From an uncultured Terricaulis sp. (GTDB lineage: Bacteria; Pseudomonadota; Alphaproteobacteria; Caulobacterales; Aquidulcibacteraceae), in contig CAYZIJ010000001.1 of assembly GCA_964478365.1 (NCBI GenBank), forward strand, positions 133,267 to 197,266: 64,000 nt of DNA. The letters are read 5' to 3'. Below are positions 6,162 through 55,916 of the stretch, in pieces. A program made the position numbers and the translations under genes. Positions within the stretch are counted from its first letter, which is position 1; every line of letters begins with the position of its first letter. Below the pieces are notes generated by a model. It did not search any database, was not told the origin of the DNA, and saw only the letters and a list, made by a program, of their open reading frames with translations.

Positions 6162-8096
6162 TTACATACGCTTCAGATCGGGCGGCGTTGCGTCCTCGAC
6201 AAGGCCTTTTATGGCGTCGCCGAGCGTCACGACCTCTTGAGCGTCGCTGCCGAAGCGGCGCAGCGCCAGTTTGCGCTCCTCCGCTTCCTTGCGGCCGACC
6301 ACGGCGATAACCGGGATCTTCTGCAAGCTGTGCTCGCGGATTTTGTATCCGACCTTCTGGTTGCGGAGGTCGAGTTCCACACGCAACCCAGCCGCGCGCA
6401 TCTCCGCCGCGACTTCTTCCGCGTAACCGTCCGCTTCTTGCGTGATCGTCGCGATCACCACCTGAACGGGCGCAAGCCAGAGCGGGAAAGCGCCGGCGAC
6501 GTTCTCGATAAGAATACCGATGAAGCGTTCGAGCGAGCCGAGGATCGCGCGGTGCAACATCACCGGGCGATGCTTGGCGCCGTCCTCGCCAACATATTCC
6601 GCCTCAAGACGATCAGGCAGCTGATAGTCCAGCTGGATCGTGCCGATCGTCCACTCACGGCCAATCGCATCCTTGACCGAAAAGTCGAGCTTCGGCGCAT
6701 AGAAGGCGCCGTCGCCTTCAGCGATCGTCGGTTCGACGCCCGCCGCGCGCGCAGCGTTGAGCATTTGCGCTTCTGCTTTATCCCAGAACTCATCTGAGCC
6801 GACGCGCATTTCAGGCCGCGTCGCGAGCGCGATCTTGTGGCTCTCCATGCCGAAATCGGCATGGATCGATTTGGCCAGGCCAATGAACGCCGTCGTCTCT
6901 TCTTCGATCTGATCTTCACGGCAAAAGATGTGCGCATCGTCTTGCGTAAACGCGCGCACGCGCATCAGGCCGTGCAGCGAACCTGACGGCTCGTAGCGGT
7001 GGCACGCGCCGAACTCAGCCATGCGCAGAGGCAGATCGCGATAGCTCTTCTGGCCGAACTTGAAGATCTGCACGTGACCCGGGCAGTTCATCGGCTTCAG
7101 CGACAGCGTTTCGTTCTCCACCGTCTCGCAAACGAACATGTTCGGCCGGTACTTGTCCCAGTGACCTGACTTTTCCCAGAACACACGGTCGAGCACTTGT
7201 GGCGTGCGCACTTCGAGATAGCCCGCCGCATCCAAGCGGCGGCGCATGTACGCTTCGATCGTGCGCCATAGCGTCAGGCCCTTTTGGTGCCAGAACACCA
7301 TGCCGCGCCCCTCTTCCTGCATATGGAAGAGATCCATCTGGCGGCCGAGTTTGCGGTGGTCGCGCTTCTCGGCTTCTTCAAGCTGGCGAAGATACTCTTC
7401 GAGCTGCTTCTCATCGGCCCAGGCCGTGCCGTAGATGCGCTGCAATTGCTGGTTCTTCTGATCGCCACGCCAATAGGCGCCCGCGAGCTTCATCAGCTTG
7501 AAGGCTTTGCCGAGCTTGCCCGTCGACGGCAAATGCGGCCCGCGGCAGAGATCGCCCCACTTATCGCCGTGCGAATAGATCGTGATCGCATCGCCGGGCT
7601 TGATCACTTCATCGATCGTCTCGGCTTTGTAGATTTCGCCGATCGATTTGAAGTGCGCGATCGCGGCGTCCTTCTCCCAGACCTTACGGATGATCGGCAG
7701 ATCGGCGTCTACGATCTCCTTCATGCGCTTTTCGATCTTCTCGAAATCGTCCGTCGAGAACGGCTCGTCGCGCGCGAAGTCGTAATAGAAGCCGTCTTCC
7801 GTCACCGGACCGAACGTGACTTGCGTGCCGGGAAAAAGCTCCTGCACCGCTTGCGCAAGAACGTGCGCCGCGTCGTGGCGCAGCACTTCAAGACCGTCCG
7901 CGCTATCGCGCATGACAAGCTCAAACTTGCCGCCGCCCTCAAGCGGCCGCGTCAGATCCCACCAAGCGCCGTCAAGCTTCGCAGCGACAACTTTCTTGGC
8001 GAGCGATTTCGAAATGCCTTCGGCCACCGCCAACGGCGTTACGCCATCGTCGTAACTACGCTCGGCGCCGTCGGGAAATTTGAGTGAGATGCTCAT
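6162..8096 (-). CDS. thrS: Threonine--tRNA ligase
   Basis: TGS domain, RHDAAHVLA, DLCRGPH, RDHRKLG, KPMNCPGH, HRAILGSLERF. Confidence 0.99.
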   Translation of the reverse strand: MSISLKFPDGAERSYDDGVTPLAVAEGISKSLAKKVVAAKLDGAWWDLTRPLEGGGKFELVMRDSADGLEVLRHDAAHVLAQAVQELFPGTQVTFGPVTEDGFYYDFARDEPFSTDDFEKIEKRMKEIVDADLPIIRKVWEKDAAIAHFKSIGEIYKAETIDEVIKPGDAITIYSHGDKWGDLCRGPHLPSTGKLGKAFKLMKLAGAYWRGDQKNQQLQRIYGTAWADEKQLEEYLRQLEEAEKRDHRKLGRQMDLFHMQEEGRGMVFWHQKGLTLWRTIEAYMRRRLDAAGYLEVRTPQVLDRVFWEKSGHWDKYRPNMFVCETVENETLSLKPMNCPGHVQIFKFGQKSYRDLPLRMAEFGACHRYEPSGSLHGLMRVRAFTQDDAHIFCREDQIEEETTAFIGLAKSIHADFGMESHKIALATRPEMRVGSDEFWDKAEAQMLNAARAAGVEPTIAEGDGAFYAPKLDFSVKDAIGREWTIGTIQLDYQLPDRLEAEYVGEDGAKHRPVMLHRAILGSLERFIGILIENVAGAFPLWLAPVQVVIATITQEADGYAEEVAAEMRAAGLRVELDLRNQKVGYKIREHSLQKIPVIAVVGRKEAEERKLALRRFGSDAQEVVTLGDAIKGLVEDATPPDLKRM

Positions 8097-8422
8097 GACT
8101 TATTCTCGTTGAGTTCGATGTCTGCTGGCGGCGCGCGATAGCCGCCCTTCCAGTCGCCATAACGCCAAGGCCGCCACCACGAGTTCTTCTTGACCTCACG
8201 CGGCGCCGGATCCCAGCCATGCCCGCCCCAAGGCGCGCACCGGCAGATGCGCGCGCCAGTCATCCACACACCCGCCCACGCACCGTGCGCGCGTATGCAA
8301 TCGGCAGAATAGGACGAACACGTCGGCCGATAGCGGCAGCCCTGGCCGATGAGCGGCGAGAGCGTCCACTTATAAAGCTGGATGAGGCCCAGAAGGCCTC
8401 TTGCGGGAAGACTCAATGACAT
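8093..8422 (-). CDS. yidD: Membrane protein insertion efficiency factor
   Basis: YKWTLSPLIGQGCRYRPTCSSY...RICRCAPWG.HGWDP. Stop overlaps the thrS start (ATGA). Confidence 0.95.
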   Translation of the reverse strand: MSLSLPARGLLGLIQLYKWTLSPLIGQGCRYRPTCSSYSADCIRAHGAWAGVWMTGARICRCAPWGGHGWDPAPREVKKNSWWRPWRYGDWKGGYRAPPADIELNENKS

Positions 8423-8502
8423 GACGACGACAATTTGGTTCTAGCTCGATCGGGGCGCAAACATGCCGCCGCTGCGGCGCGCCCGATCATGCGCCGCCGG
8501 CT

Positions 8503-8541
8503 CTAGCTGGTAGTCGTCGTAGTGGTGAGGCGCTGAACCAT
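8503..8541 (-). CDS. Threonine-rich leader peptide MVQRLTTTTTTS (longer form MSAMVQRLTTTTTTS from 8550)
   Basis: ATG GTT CAG CGC CTC ACC ACT ACG ACG ACT ACC AGC TAG: six consecutive Thr codons 80 nt upstream of yidD-thrS. Confidence 0.8.
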   Translation of the reverse strand: MVQRLTTTTTTS

Positions 8542-8547
8542 GGCGCT

Positions 8548-8576
8548 CATATACACATGCCCGCCTCTAGACTCAA
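8548..8576 (-). promoter_or_regulatory. sigma70-like promoter of the leader-yidD-thrS transcript
   Basis: TTGAGT (8576-8571), 17 nt, TATATG (8553-8548). Predicted +1 at 8541 is the A of the leader ATG. Confidence 0.6.
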
Positions 8577-8896
8577 CCGGAGGCGCCGCCGCCTTTTTCC
8601 TGGCAGCGCACCAGCGTGAAGGCCCCGTAGCATTCGAGATAATCGGCGCCTGGCAGATCGAGCGTGTATTTCGAGGCGAGGTAGAAGCTTTCGTAGCGCC
8701 CAGCCCCTGCCACCATACCGGTGACGAAATCGACCACCGAGTCCAGCGAGAGCGGCGCAGGCTCAGCGCCCTCCGCAGCAGGCGCGCCGGCGCGCGCTTC
8801 GAGAAACGCACGCGCGGCCGCTTCATGCTGAGCTTGCGTCGGGACGGTGAAATACGCCCCGACGCCCGCCAAGATCAAAAGCAACAAAAGCCGCAT
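8573..8896 (-). CDS. Hypothetical exported protein, paralog of 8902..9216
   Basis: Signal/anchor MRLLLLLILAGVGAYFTVP. C-terminal YLASKYTL...CYGAFTLVRC. Confidence 0.75.
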   Translation of the reverse strand: MRLLLLLILAGVGAYFTVPTQAQHEAAARAFLEARAGAPAAEGAEPAPLSLDSVVDFVTGMVAGAGRYESFYLASKYTLDLPGADYLECYGAFTLVRCQEKGGGASG

Positions 8897-8901
8897 CGGC
8901 T

Positions 8902-9216
8902 TTAGCCGCCGGTCCGCGTATCTTCCTGACGCGTGCACTGCACTTGCGTGAACGCGCCAATGCAGCTGACGATCGGCTGACCGTCGAGCGTCACGTCATA
9001 CTTCGCACCGACATAGTAGTTGGTGTAAGCACGGTCGCCCGCGAGTGCGACGGCAGCGCCTTCAGCGACGCCGCCAAGATCGAGATTACCTGCCGCAGCT
9101 TCGGTGCTCTCCTGCAGCACAGCGTCAGCCGCAGAACGCATCGCCGCTTCTTCCGGGCGCGTGAAATAGCCGGCGACGCCAGCGATGATCAAAAGCAACA
9201 AAACCAGCCTGAGCAT
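8902..9216 (-). CDS. Hypothetical exported protein, paralog of 8573..8896
   Basis: MLRLVLLLLIIAGVAGYFTRP...YYVGAKYDV...CIGAFTQVQC. Confidence 0.75.
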   Translation of the reverse strand: MLRLVLLLLIIAGVAGYFTRPEEAAMRSAADAVLQESTEAAAGNLDLGGVAEGAAVALAGDRAYTNYYVGAKYDVTLDGQPIVSCIGAFTQVQCTRQEDTRTGG

Positions 9217-9278
9217 TGGGTCTCTCCCTCGTTCCCCTGCGGCGACCCTAGCGCAGCGCTCCCGCGCCGCAAAGCGCC

Positions 9279-9680
9279 TCAGCCCGCTTTCTTGCGCGCG
9301 GGCGATTTTGGCGGCGCAAATGCCATCGAAAGTTTCTTGGGCGCCACGGCGCGCCAGCTTTCGTCGAGATAATCGGTCAGCTTGCCCAGCGGCGCCTTGG
9401 CCTTCGCACTAAACCTGAACGTGACCCAGCCAGCCTTGCCAAGACCATAGCCAGTAGGCTCGGCGTTCTTCATCTGCAAAGCGTCATCACGGCGAAACGG
9501 AAGCTTCATCGAAACCGAGAGCCCGCTAGCCTCGTCGCCGCCGACGAACAGGAACGCCTTCTTGCCCGCAACTTTGTAAGCCGGGTGTCCCCACGGCATA
9601 TCCTCGACCGTCTCCGGATACTTCATCGCCGCCGTGCGCAGCGCTTTCGCGACTGGGTGATCTGCATGCGTCCATTTCAT
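9279..9680 (-). CDS. MmcQ/YjbR family protein
   Basis: YPETVEDMPWGHPAYKVAGKKAF, PTGYGLGKAGWV, LTDYLDESWRAVAPKK. Confidence 0.85.
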   Translation of the reverse strand: MKWTHADHPVAKALRTAAMKYPETVEDMPWGHPAYKVAGKKAFLFVGGDEASGLSVSMKLPFRRDDALQMKNAEPTGYGLGKAGWVTFRFSAKAKAPLGKLTDYLDESWRAVAPKKLSMAFAPPKSPARKKAG

Positions 9681-55470: not shown

Positions 55471-55518
55471 CGCCCGCCCCGCCTGCGAGGGCGGTTATCG
55501 AGCGCATGAAGAAAAAAT

Positions 55519-55916
55519 GCCAGTCGGCCTGTAAGCCGGGTTCTGTACCTCTTGCGAGGTGACGACCATTCCTCTGGACCGCACATTGCTGCGCGGTTCT
55601 CGCGACCAACCCGGATGCACGCTCACGGACGAGCTGTACCCCGGATCAAGTCCGGGGCCATTGCATCCCTATTCGGTCTTGCTCCCGGCGGGGCTTGCCG
55701 TGCCACCTTCCTTACGGTCGGCGCGGTGGGCTCTTACCCCACCGTTTCAGCCTTGCCTGTGCTCACTTGCGCGAGCCATCGGCGGTTTGTTCTCTGTGGC
55801 GCTATCCCTAAGATTTCTCTCGGCGGGCGTTACCCGCCGCCGTATCCGCGTGGAGCCCGGACTTTCCTCGAACGCACCGTTTCCAGTTTGCGCCCGCGGC
55901 CGTCCAGCCGACTGGC
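55519..55916 (-). ncRNA. rnpB: RNase P RNA (type A)
   Basis: GCCAGTCGGCTGGACGGCCGC...GAGGAAAGTCCGGGCTC...ACAGAACCCGGCTTACAGGCCGACTGGC. Confidence 0.99.

Follow-up and report, generated by a model that had tools for sequence, protein, structure and literature searches.

In manner of working, the closest described counterparts of the element considered here appear to be the leaderless poly-Cys short open reading frames (sORFs) of mycobacteria, where a stalled ribosome keeps a duplex from sequestering the start of the gene that follows (Canestrari et al., bioRxiv 10.1101/834739). Our element lies in a 64,000-nucleotide (nt) stretch of DNA from an uncultured Terricaulis sp. (GenBank assembly GCA_964478365.1, contig CAYZIJ010000001.1, positions 133,267 to 197,266), the whole of which was analyzed and is hereafter called the window; coordinates are window positions, and all features of the locus are read on the minus strand. 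It comprises a short open reading frame (ORF) with six Thr codons, followed by a two-helix RNA module, and it precedes yidD and thrS, the latter encoding threonyl-tRNA synthetase (ThrRS). As judged by sequence comparison, the element is real and conserved and is almost certainly a cis-acting regulator of yidD-thrS that senses Thr-tRNA; to the reading that it works as a ribosome-mediated attenuator responsive to charged tRNA-Thr we assign a probability of roughly 0.6. In principle it would be a leader-peptide attenuator, a type of control that is well known. The new parts are the RNA module and a noncanonical readout, and we found no description of the present yidD-thrS element in the literature.

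The likeness to the mycobacterial sORFs covers a leaderless first-cistron sORF (leaderlessness being predicted in our case), consecutive codons for the amino acid that is sensed, the lack of a terminator, and a codon tract that pairs with the start region of the next gene, here in the window and in 21 of 47 species of its genus. However, the mycobacterial sORFs are actinobacterial, sense Cys, and control genes of Cys metabolism, whereas the present leader serves a synthetase operon whose first gene has no Shine-Dalgarno (SD) sequence. Moreover, a conserved two-helix module stands between ORF and target, and the codon:start-region pairing occurs in only part of one genus.

Among synthetase operons, pheST of E. 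coli offers another resemblance in that its leader peptide, PheM, is rich in cognate codons and controls the operon according to tRNA charging. Unlike the yidD-thrS leader, pheM has its own SD sequence and 5′ untranslated region, as well as an intrinsic terminator with a U tract. The enterobacterial thrL leader (Rfam RF00506, Thr_leader) likewise uses a short ORF whose successive Thr codons let the ribosome act as the sensor, but it controls thrABC biosynthesis, contains Ile codons too, and acts through a terminator/antiterminator pair. The classical attenuators as a group (thrL, pheM, trpL, and hisL) share with our locus the ORF rich in cognate codons but not the intrinsic terminator that serves as their OFF structure. 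The Rho-dependent attenuators tnaC and mgtL come nearer in this respect, as they too lack an intrinsic terminator and combine a short ORF with nearby RNA that is C rich and unstructured; they differ in amino acid and gene context, and the Rho site in the present locus is a candidate by composition. Regulation of thrS by a signal related to tRNA-Thr is also known from the E. coli thrS operator, where ThrRS binds anticodon-arm mimics beside the SD sequence, and from the Thr T-boxes of Firmicutes, which bind uncharged tRNA. Here, in contrast, the proposed sensor is the translating ribosome, there is no T-box match, and inspection by eye revealed neither an NGU anticodon-like loop nor an SD sequence (the stem I loop reads (A/G)GAUCGGG, and the apex of stem II is GC rich). 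Finally, in Streptomyces lividans a leaderless short ORF termed 'thrL' precedes thrS, and the hairpin behind it lacks a U-rich tract (Droste et al. 2021, PMC8079986). That element was proposed from the RNA-seq of one genome, without comparative or functional support; it has only two Thr among 18 residues and is unrelated to ours in sequence and structure.

The RNA family described below comprises 84 sequences with strong covariation and has no Rfam entry. To our knowledge, the regulation of aminoacyl-tRNA synthetases in alphaproteobacteria is largely unknown, and we know of neither T-boxes nor an E. coli-type thrS operator in this class. If read correctly, the element places an essential synthetase gene under a leaderless sensing ORF, with neither an intrinsic terminator nor SD sequestration as its readout, and it would allow the transmission of ribosome stalling to be tested where leaderless and SD-less initiation is common. 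Caulobacter crescentus NA1000, a laboratory strain, is able to translate mRNAs of both kinds.

The case for Thr sensing is built on 83 distinct homologous leaders that we collected from 10 genera of one family. All 83 loci have a short ORF at the leader position, and in every one of them the codon at position -2 before the stop specifies Thr. Thr also occupies position -3 in 76/83 leaders, -4 in 64/83, -5 in 59/83, and -6 in 39/81; genome-wide, it accounts for 5.1% of codons in the source genome. An earlier note on this DNA, made from its letters alone, had proposed a Thr-rich leader ORF before yidD-thrS; its absence from orthologous loci was looked for, and the ORF, with its Thr run, was found in all 83. 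The Thr codons used across the homologues are ACG (121), ACC (116), ACT (96), and ACA (14), so that ACT makes up 28% of them, compared with 8.9% genome-wide, an approximately threefold enrichment of a rare codon. Positions -2 and -3 are mostly ACY and positions -4 and -5 mostly ACG; therefore, both major isoacceptors would be queried. This variation at third positions points to selection on the amino acid or its tRNA and not on a fixed RNA word. The N-terminal half of the leader varies freely, the codon just before the stop may specify Y, S, C, D, F, G, or another residue, and each of the three stop codons occurs. Exactly 1 nt lies between the stop codon and stem I (GCCGG) in 83 of 83 leaders.

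A similar regularity is seen on the 5′ side, where a TA-type -10 hexamer (TAnnnn, mostly TAT) lies 6 to 7 nt before the leader ATG in 69 of the 83 homologues, an arrangement that fits a leaderless transcript, as the earlier note had suggested for the window. The hexamers of the window, TTGAGT and TATATG, are separated by 17 nt, and TTGAGC or TTGAGT with a 17- to 18-nt spacer is common to most species of the genus. Because the -10 box sits 6 nt 5′ of the leader ATG, transcription is predicted to begin on the A of that codon (8541) and hence to yield a leaderless mRNA; no SD-like sequence was seen before the ATG. A promoter scanner made no call at this promoter, owing to the G that ends its -10 hexamer. 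Taken together, the conservation of Thr, the variation of its codons, the fixed gap, and the -10 spacing leave a translated, leaderless, Thr-sensing ORF as the only reasonable reading, transcription start and translation both being predicted from these patterns. The promoter, the MVQRLTTTTTTS ORF, its six Thr codons, the 80-nt gap (8502-8423) between the leader stop and the yidD ATG (8422-8420), and the ATGA overlap of the yidD stop with the thrS start were all located where the earlier note had placed them.

How far the leader extends beyond the window was examined in two ways. In a thrS-anchored scan of one genome per species, which yielded 80 loci, yidD-thrS synteny proved typical of Caulobacter-like lineages, and a Thr run upstream of yidD was present in only 3 of the 80 loci, all of which group with the window; two Reyranella-type loci had a Thr run upstream of thrS. 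No Thr-rich short ORF was found at yidD-thrS loci of the Caulobacter, Brevundimonas, Phenylobacterium, Asticcacaulis, Hyphomonas, and Maricaulis types. Within the window's genus, the leader was present in 36 of 36 examined species. A covariance model built from the region after the stop codon, used to search genomes of the family, order, and class, matched 59 of 61 genomes of the window's family, from 10 genera; most of the organisms that carry the element are uncultured. It returned nothing convincing in other families of the order (matches had E values of at least 2e-4) and no homologue in 400 alphaproteobacterial genomes outside the family, representing 308 genera. The matches outside the family (those in the order and those in 2 of the 400 genomes of the class) were rejected as coding DNA or, in one case, a leuA leader hairpin. 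Of the conservation that the earlier note had proposed to look for across lineages, the part within the family was borne out, but it does not reach the Caulobacter- and Hyphomonas-type yidD-thrS loci.

The RNA module begins immediately after the leader. Stem I is a helix of 12 bp made up of GCCG:CGGC, a 2-nt bulge, and then 7 to 8 further GC pairs. The earlier note had recognized the pairing of GCGGCGC (8497-8491) with GCGCCGC (8480-8474), to which we add that of GCCG (8501-8498) with CGGC (8471-8468). Its predicted hairpin stability is about -20 to -23 kcal/mol (energies throughout are nearest-neighbor predictions). In stem II, 7 nt of the stem I loop pair with a segment approximately 10 nt 3′ of stem I. 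We assessed covariation in an alignment of 84 sequences that was fitted only to stem II, stem I not being in the fitting model. Over both helices, 98.6% of cells were paired, and 11 of 19 pairs showed changes on both sides, covering 86 cells; none of 500 shuffles scored as high, and slid controls were 34 to 47% paired. Both-side changes affect 6 of the 7 stem II pairs, a count that comes from a model-fitted alignment, and give rise to covariants such as GAUCGGG/CCCGAUC, GAUUGGG/CCCAAUC, GACGAGG/CCUCGUC, GACGGAG/CUCCGUC, GGCAGGG/CCCUGCC, UUUGGGC/GCCCAAA, and UGUGGG/CCCACA. Stem I is returned by RNAalifold as the consensus structure, and its pairs are kept at 100% and 99.8%, with compensatory changes in other genera (GCGGCGC/GCGCCGC, GCGAGGCGC/GCGCUUCGC, and CGACAU/AUGUCG). 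The segments GCCGGCG and CGGC are invariant in all 84 sequences, the low-GC genus included.

In GC-rich genera, stem II extends into the 3′ arm of stem I. When the stem I 5′ arm is masked, this extended stem II hairpin has a predicted stability of -20 to -28 kcal/mol (-25.7 in the window), similar to that of stem I itself (ca. -23 kcal/mol). The unconstrained minimum free energy fold of 8545-8400 contains stem II together with a helix between the Thr codons and the start region; however, shuffled sequences reach comparable energies (z 0.05), and the single-sequence fold therefore proves nothing. Rfam gave no match to the module: a cmscan search of 7900-9300 with E values up to 10 returned only a chance match to RT-15 elsewhere, and at the gathering threshold the whole window matched RNase P RNA only, with no T-box or Thr_leader (RF00506) hit.

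As a separate observation, the lower part of stem I, GCCG:CGGC, reproduces the four pairs with which the acceptor stems of the source genome's tRNA-Thr genes begin. Four of the 39 tRNAs of that genome start with GCCG, and three of the four are tRNA-Thr. This likeness may be a coincidence. The features of the locus are collected in Table 1.

Table 1. Positions of the promoter, leader, RNA module, and genes at the yidD-thrS locus of the window
Feature	Position	Strand	Remarks
-35-like hexamer TTGAGT	8576-8571	-	Overlaps TGA stop of upstream 121-aa ORF
-10-like hexamer TATATG, then AGCGCC	8553-8548	-	6 nt 5′ of leader ATG
Leader ORF MVQRLTTTTTTS*, 12 codons + TAG	8541-8503	-	ATG 8541-8539, TAG 8505-8503
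Six Thr codons ACC ACT ACG ACG ACT ACC	8526-8509	-	Presumed sensing codons
Stem I 5′ arm GCCGGCGGCGC	8501-8491	-	Begins 1 nt 3′ of stop codon
Stem I 3′ arm GCGCCGC-AG-CGGC	8480-8468	-	AG bulge 8473-8472
Stem II 5′ arm GAUCGGG(CGC) = GAUCGGGCGC	8488-8479	-	Conserved 7 nt = stem I hairpin loop
Stem II 3′ arm (GCG)C-CCCGAUC = GCGCCCCGAUC	8458-8448	-	One bulged C
G-poor, A/C/U-rich spacer without SD	8447-8423	-	Between stem II and yidD ATG
GUCGUCGU	8431-8424	-	Perfect complement of Thr-codon stretch ACGACGAC (8520-8513)
yidD, membrane protein insertion efficiency factor, 109 aa	8422-8093	-	Pfam PF01809, 1.1e-24
thrS, threonyl-tRNA synthetase, 644 aa	8096-6162	-	Pfam TGS, tRNA_SAD, tRNA-synt_2b, HGTP_anticodon

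The mechanism that we favor would run as follows. With transcription starting on the A of the leader ATG, as the promoter geometry suggests, a 70S ribosome would load directly onto the 12-codon ORF. The last five to six sense codons but one are, from the comparison, Thr codons, and it is here that the ribosome would sense Thr-tRNA. Counted from the first base of the last Thr codon, stem I begins 10 nt downstream. From ribosome footprints and helicase positions, a ribosome with this codon in its A site would have stem I some 13 nt from its P site, at the mouth of the mRNA channel. A ribosome awaiting Thr-tRNA at the last Thr codon would therefore abut stem I and leave it closed, while one that has reached the stop codon would have to draw approximately 9 to 10 nt of the 5′ arm into the channel. 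The stop-stem I spacing, fixed in 83 of 83 leaders, is in our view the best argument that ribosome position is signaled through stem I. Once stem I is opened, its loop and 3′ arm could refold with the downstream arm into the extended stem II; the helices themselves covary, and the switch between them is presumed. The step of which we are least certain is the last one, in which the freed 3′ part of the leader (ACGACGAC) would pair with the SD-less yidD start (GUCGUCGU) and block initiation, in the source genome and in much of the genus, and a ribosome stalled on the Thr codons would prevent this pairing. Presumably, thrS would then follow yidD by translational coupling through the ATGA overlap, and the effect may be reinforced by Rho, for which the untranslated RNA, rich in C and poor in G, would be the substrate. 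Two of the premises, both already made in the earlier note, agree with the comparison: no SD sequence was seen before yidD in any locus examined (a GGAG-type SD is absent from the window), and the ATGA overlap is retained in 39 of 50 loci.

For the last step, the window itself provides an 8-bp duplex between Thr tract and yidD start with a predicted energy of -15.2 kcal/mol (z -4.0 versus shuffles), a value within the extreme 3.3% for 916 real start regions from this genome. When the 3′ part of the leader ORF was compared with the region from stem II to yidD +10, complementarity was significant (p<0.05) in the 21 of 47 congeneric species mentioned above. The pairing solutions within the genus differ in sequence, and at least five can be told apart (GUCGUCGUC, CUGUAGUUUGUGAUG, AUAGUCGUCAUG, CGUUCGUUUC, and CGUCAAAGUCAUC); selection for leader:start pairing within the genus is plausible. 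Taken alone, start-site masking with coupled translation of thrS in the source genome is a tentative proposal, to which we would give somewhat less than even odds.

Several observations weigh against the mechanism as outlined, and most of them concern this output. In the nine other genera, leader:start complementarity is at the level of chance (3/32, mean z 0.04), so that the perfect ACGACGAC:GUCGUCGU pairing seen by the earlier note stands for the window and part of its genus but not as a general mechanism. The attenuator also lies approximately 145 to 150 nt from yidD in genus g17 and, within the window's own genus, 201 nt away in L098, where some 120 nt have been inserted; at such distances, codon:start pairing cannot be the output throughout the family. 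On the sequences compared, we take the pairing to be a lineage-level add-on, or one of several outputs, and not the conserved core. Predicted start-opening energies showed no consistent difference between ON and OFF states (free versus masked, at equilibrium, with the hairpins closed). With a mean pair probability of 0.29, the 5′ arm of stem I is complementary to AUGUCGCCGAGC at the yidD start in most of the genus, but this complementarity does not exceed the background of GC-rich genes. The leader, too, is not uniformly rich in Thr: in genus g17 it is down to two Thr codons and in g22 to one or two. Finally, the two helices may coexist as a pseudoknot and not form a switch, since, of stem I, only the loop takes part in the conserved stem II pairs. 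The earlier note had described the stems as mutually exclusive; both exist and covary, but their mutual exclusivity is not required, and the geometry fits an H-type pseudoknot just as well.

Some details of these divergent loci deserve mention in their own right. In g17 (L150-L160 and L180-L182), the leader ends in ...HLTTD*, with just two Thr codons (ACT ACT), and a conserved spacer of approximately 115 nt follows stem II, containing a CU-rich tract (CUUCUCUCCCUCCCC) and a TGGCAC-containing motif and ending at yidD. Inverted repeats (CAUUCCGG...CCGGAAUG) occur within the L098 insertion, which lies between stem II and yidD; the leader and the two stems are preserved in this species, but its yidD start region has lost the complementarity to the leader. 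The g22 loci (L167 and L170) keep the stem I/II module behind a leader with one or two Thr codons. yidD was not found within approximately 300 nt of either, and L167 has four tandem copies of CAAAGGCCAGCACCGG in the downstream DNA; this copy of the element may be decayed or repurposed. Two other readings were tried and rejected. A role of the stem I 5′ arm as an anti-start sequence (GCCGGCGGC with GUCGCCGaGC, -16.8 kcal/mol in most species of the genus) was dropped because it could not be told from background, 16.8% of real genes scoring as well, and a leader-yidD fusion by read-through or frameshifting was dropped since, between stop and ATG, all distances from 77 to 83 nt occur in the genus and, therefore, no reading frame is kept.

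The composition of the spacer leaves room for another output from the same sensor. Stem II usually ends approximately 25 nt before the yidD ATG, and G makes up 15.5% of this spacer in the homologues, compared with 32.7% upstream of 917 long ORFs of the source genome, only 3.8% of which have upstream regions as G poor. C makes up 30% of the spacer and 31% of the leader ORF, which has 20% G. One possibility is that the Thr tract and the spacer together form a Rho loading site in two halves, the GC-rich module between them being looped out, a layout reminiscent of rutA-boxB-rutB in lambda tR1. A stalled ribosome would then mask the 5′ half, much as in tnaC, and permit read-through into yidD-thrS, whereas departure of the ribosome would expose the RNA to early Rho termination. 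Both tnaC and mgtL are established cases of Rho under the control of a leader peptide, and extreme C/U-rich tracts follow stem II in several genera, CUUCUCUCCCUCCCC of g17 being an example. In such a scheme the distance from yidD is irrelevant, which fits g17, part of g24, and the species with the insertion. On the other hand, it leaves unexplained the complementarity between Thr tract and yidD start that is enriched in the window's genus, and it gives no role to the nearly isoenergetic alternative folds. The G-poor sequence is equally expected of an unstructured SD-less start region, so that the spacer fits both readings equally well. On balance, Rho-dependent attenuation appears unlikely as a replacement for the mechanism that we favor, but it is the main and a serious rival, or else an amplifier. 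Consistent with the earlier note and with Rho control alike, neither the window nor 83 of the 84 relatives has a U tract after stem II, and a terminator scan found no hairpin with a U tract between leader and yidD (8503-8423). The same result bears on classical transcription attenuation, in which the extended stem II would serve as an intrinsic terminator without a U tract and stem I as the antiterminator. The geometry would suit such a device, given that a ribosome at the stop codon would mask the stem I arm and so favor stem II, and a stalled one would leave stem I intact. Moreover, UUUUU directly follows stem II in a single homologue (L164, genus g19; 1 of 84), and hairpins lacking a U tract have been described after actinobacterial leaderless leaders (PMC8079986). 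Against this stand the 83 of 84 homologues without a U tract and the negative scan of the window. Hairpins without U tracts also terminate bacterial RNA polymerase poorly, and we consider this explanation very improbable.

The other two alternatives dispense with the switch or with the sensor. Stems I and II may form a static H-type pseudoknot that acts as a roadblock timing the pause on the last Thr codons or as a binding site for a protein such as ThrRS. A stalled ribosome would abut this pseudoknot without opening it, and the structure would either gate the split C-rich Rho site or bind ThrRS as an acceptor-arm-like mimic. Its geometry is constant across genera (stem S1 12 bp, loop L1 1 nt, stem S2 7 bp, loop L2 0 nt, and loop L3 9 to 14 nt), and the L1, L2, and L3 lengths fit the classical rules for H-type pseudoknots. 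Covariation in stem II falls on precisely the pairs that can form alongside stem I, and the invariance of GCCGGCG and CGGC exceeds what stability demands. Yet the extension of stem II into the stem I 3′ arm in high-GC genera, with a hairpin of equal stability, is switch-like. As for ThrRS, GCCG:CGGC matches the top of the tRNA-Thr acceptor stems, as noted above, and three of only four GCCG tRNAs are tRNA-Thr; however, a 4-bp match is weak and was noticed post hoc, the position equivalent to the discriminator varies, there is no CCA, and inspection by eye showed no loop resembling that of an anticodon, as the E. coli thrS operator has. We regard a static pseudoknot as improbable in either form. 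Were it correct, the regulator would belong to a class that uses neither a terminator nor SD masking, on an SD-less operon of the leaderless type, and in the ThrRS-binding case one RNA would integrate charged tRNA-Thr (via the ribosome) and free synthetase (via binding). The least probable alternative, to which we give hardly any weight, is that the short ORF does not sense Thr but simply loads ribosomes onto a leaderless 5′ end, for re-initiation at yidD or for protection from decay. That yidD lacks an SD sequence would accord with this, and re-initiation after leader ORFs is put forward in PMC4833913 as a general enhancer of expression. What such an ORF leaves unexplained is Thr at position -2 in 83 of 83 leaders and the placement of the Thr run before thrS specifically, as well as the enrichment of the rare codon ACT and the occurrence of an unrelated, Thr-rich leaderless ORF before thrS in a second family. 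An 80-nt gap occupied by a -23-kcal/mol helix would also be a poor path for a scanning ribosome.

The second family just mentioned is of the Reyranella type, and 47 of its 61 genomes have a different Thr leader directly before thrS (L183-L213, L042, and L045), approximately 170 nt upstream of the gene. Its promoter reads TTGACT-N17-TATCTC, then 6 to 7 nt, then ATG; the peptide follows the pattern MERRF.TAP..(T/I)TT(V/D/A)RT*; and two covarying hairpins lie between leader and thrS. The Thr codons are complementary to the sequence at the SD position of thrS, leader ACGACCACCG having CGGUGGU as its partner and leader AUCACCACC having CUGGUGA, so that the pairing is ACCACCG:CGGUGGU or, when the leader changes, UCACCA:UGGUGA. 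This case supports a codon:start-type mechanism as a real alphaproteobacterial strategy, albeit in another family. Given that the two Thr leaders are unrelated, the solution would have arisen more than once.

Two leaders for other amino acids came to our attention. On contig C19 of the source genome (minus strand), an ORF whose ATG is at offset 6416 of the reverse complement encodes a short His-rich peptide (MSTGFQPTFADRPVSGAVAHAHHHAHARH); it stands behind a -10-like box and, by eye, 94 nt upstream of a HisG-like ORF. This is probably a his leader-peptide attenuator. In genome G636, from another alphaproteobacterial family, locus L215 has a short Leu-rich ORF (MSLRLDLLLRLTRPVA*) after TATCTA-N6-ATG, with a GC-rich hairpin 3′ of the ORF and upstream of a leuA-like gene. 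It looks like a leu leader-peptide attenuator of the same leaderless design.

The gene 5′ of the leader promoter varies among subgroups of the window's genus, which indicates that the regulatory unit begins at the promoter. In the window, this position is taken by two tandem paralogous small ORFs (8573-9216, minus strand), each with an N-terminal hydrophobic segment and a shared ...Y..KY.L.L.G....C.GAFT.V.C... motif, for which Pfam gave no match. Members of this small-ORF family precede the leader in many, though not all, species of the genus. Elsewhere in the window, a bacterial class A RNase P RNA is encoded on the minus strand at 55516-55915 (Rfam RF00010, 292.6 bits).

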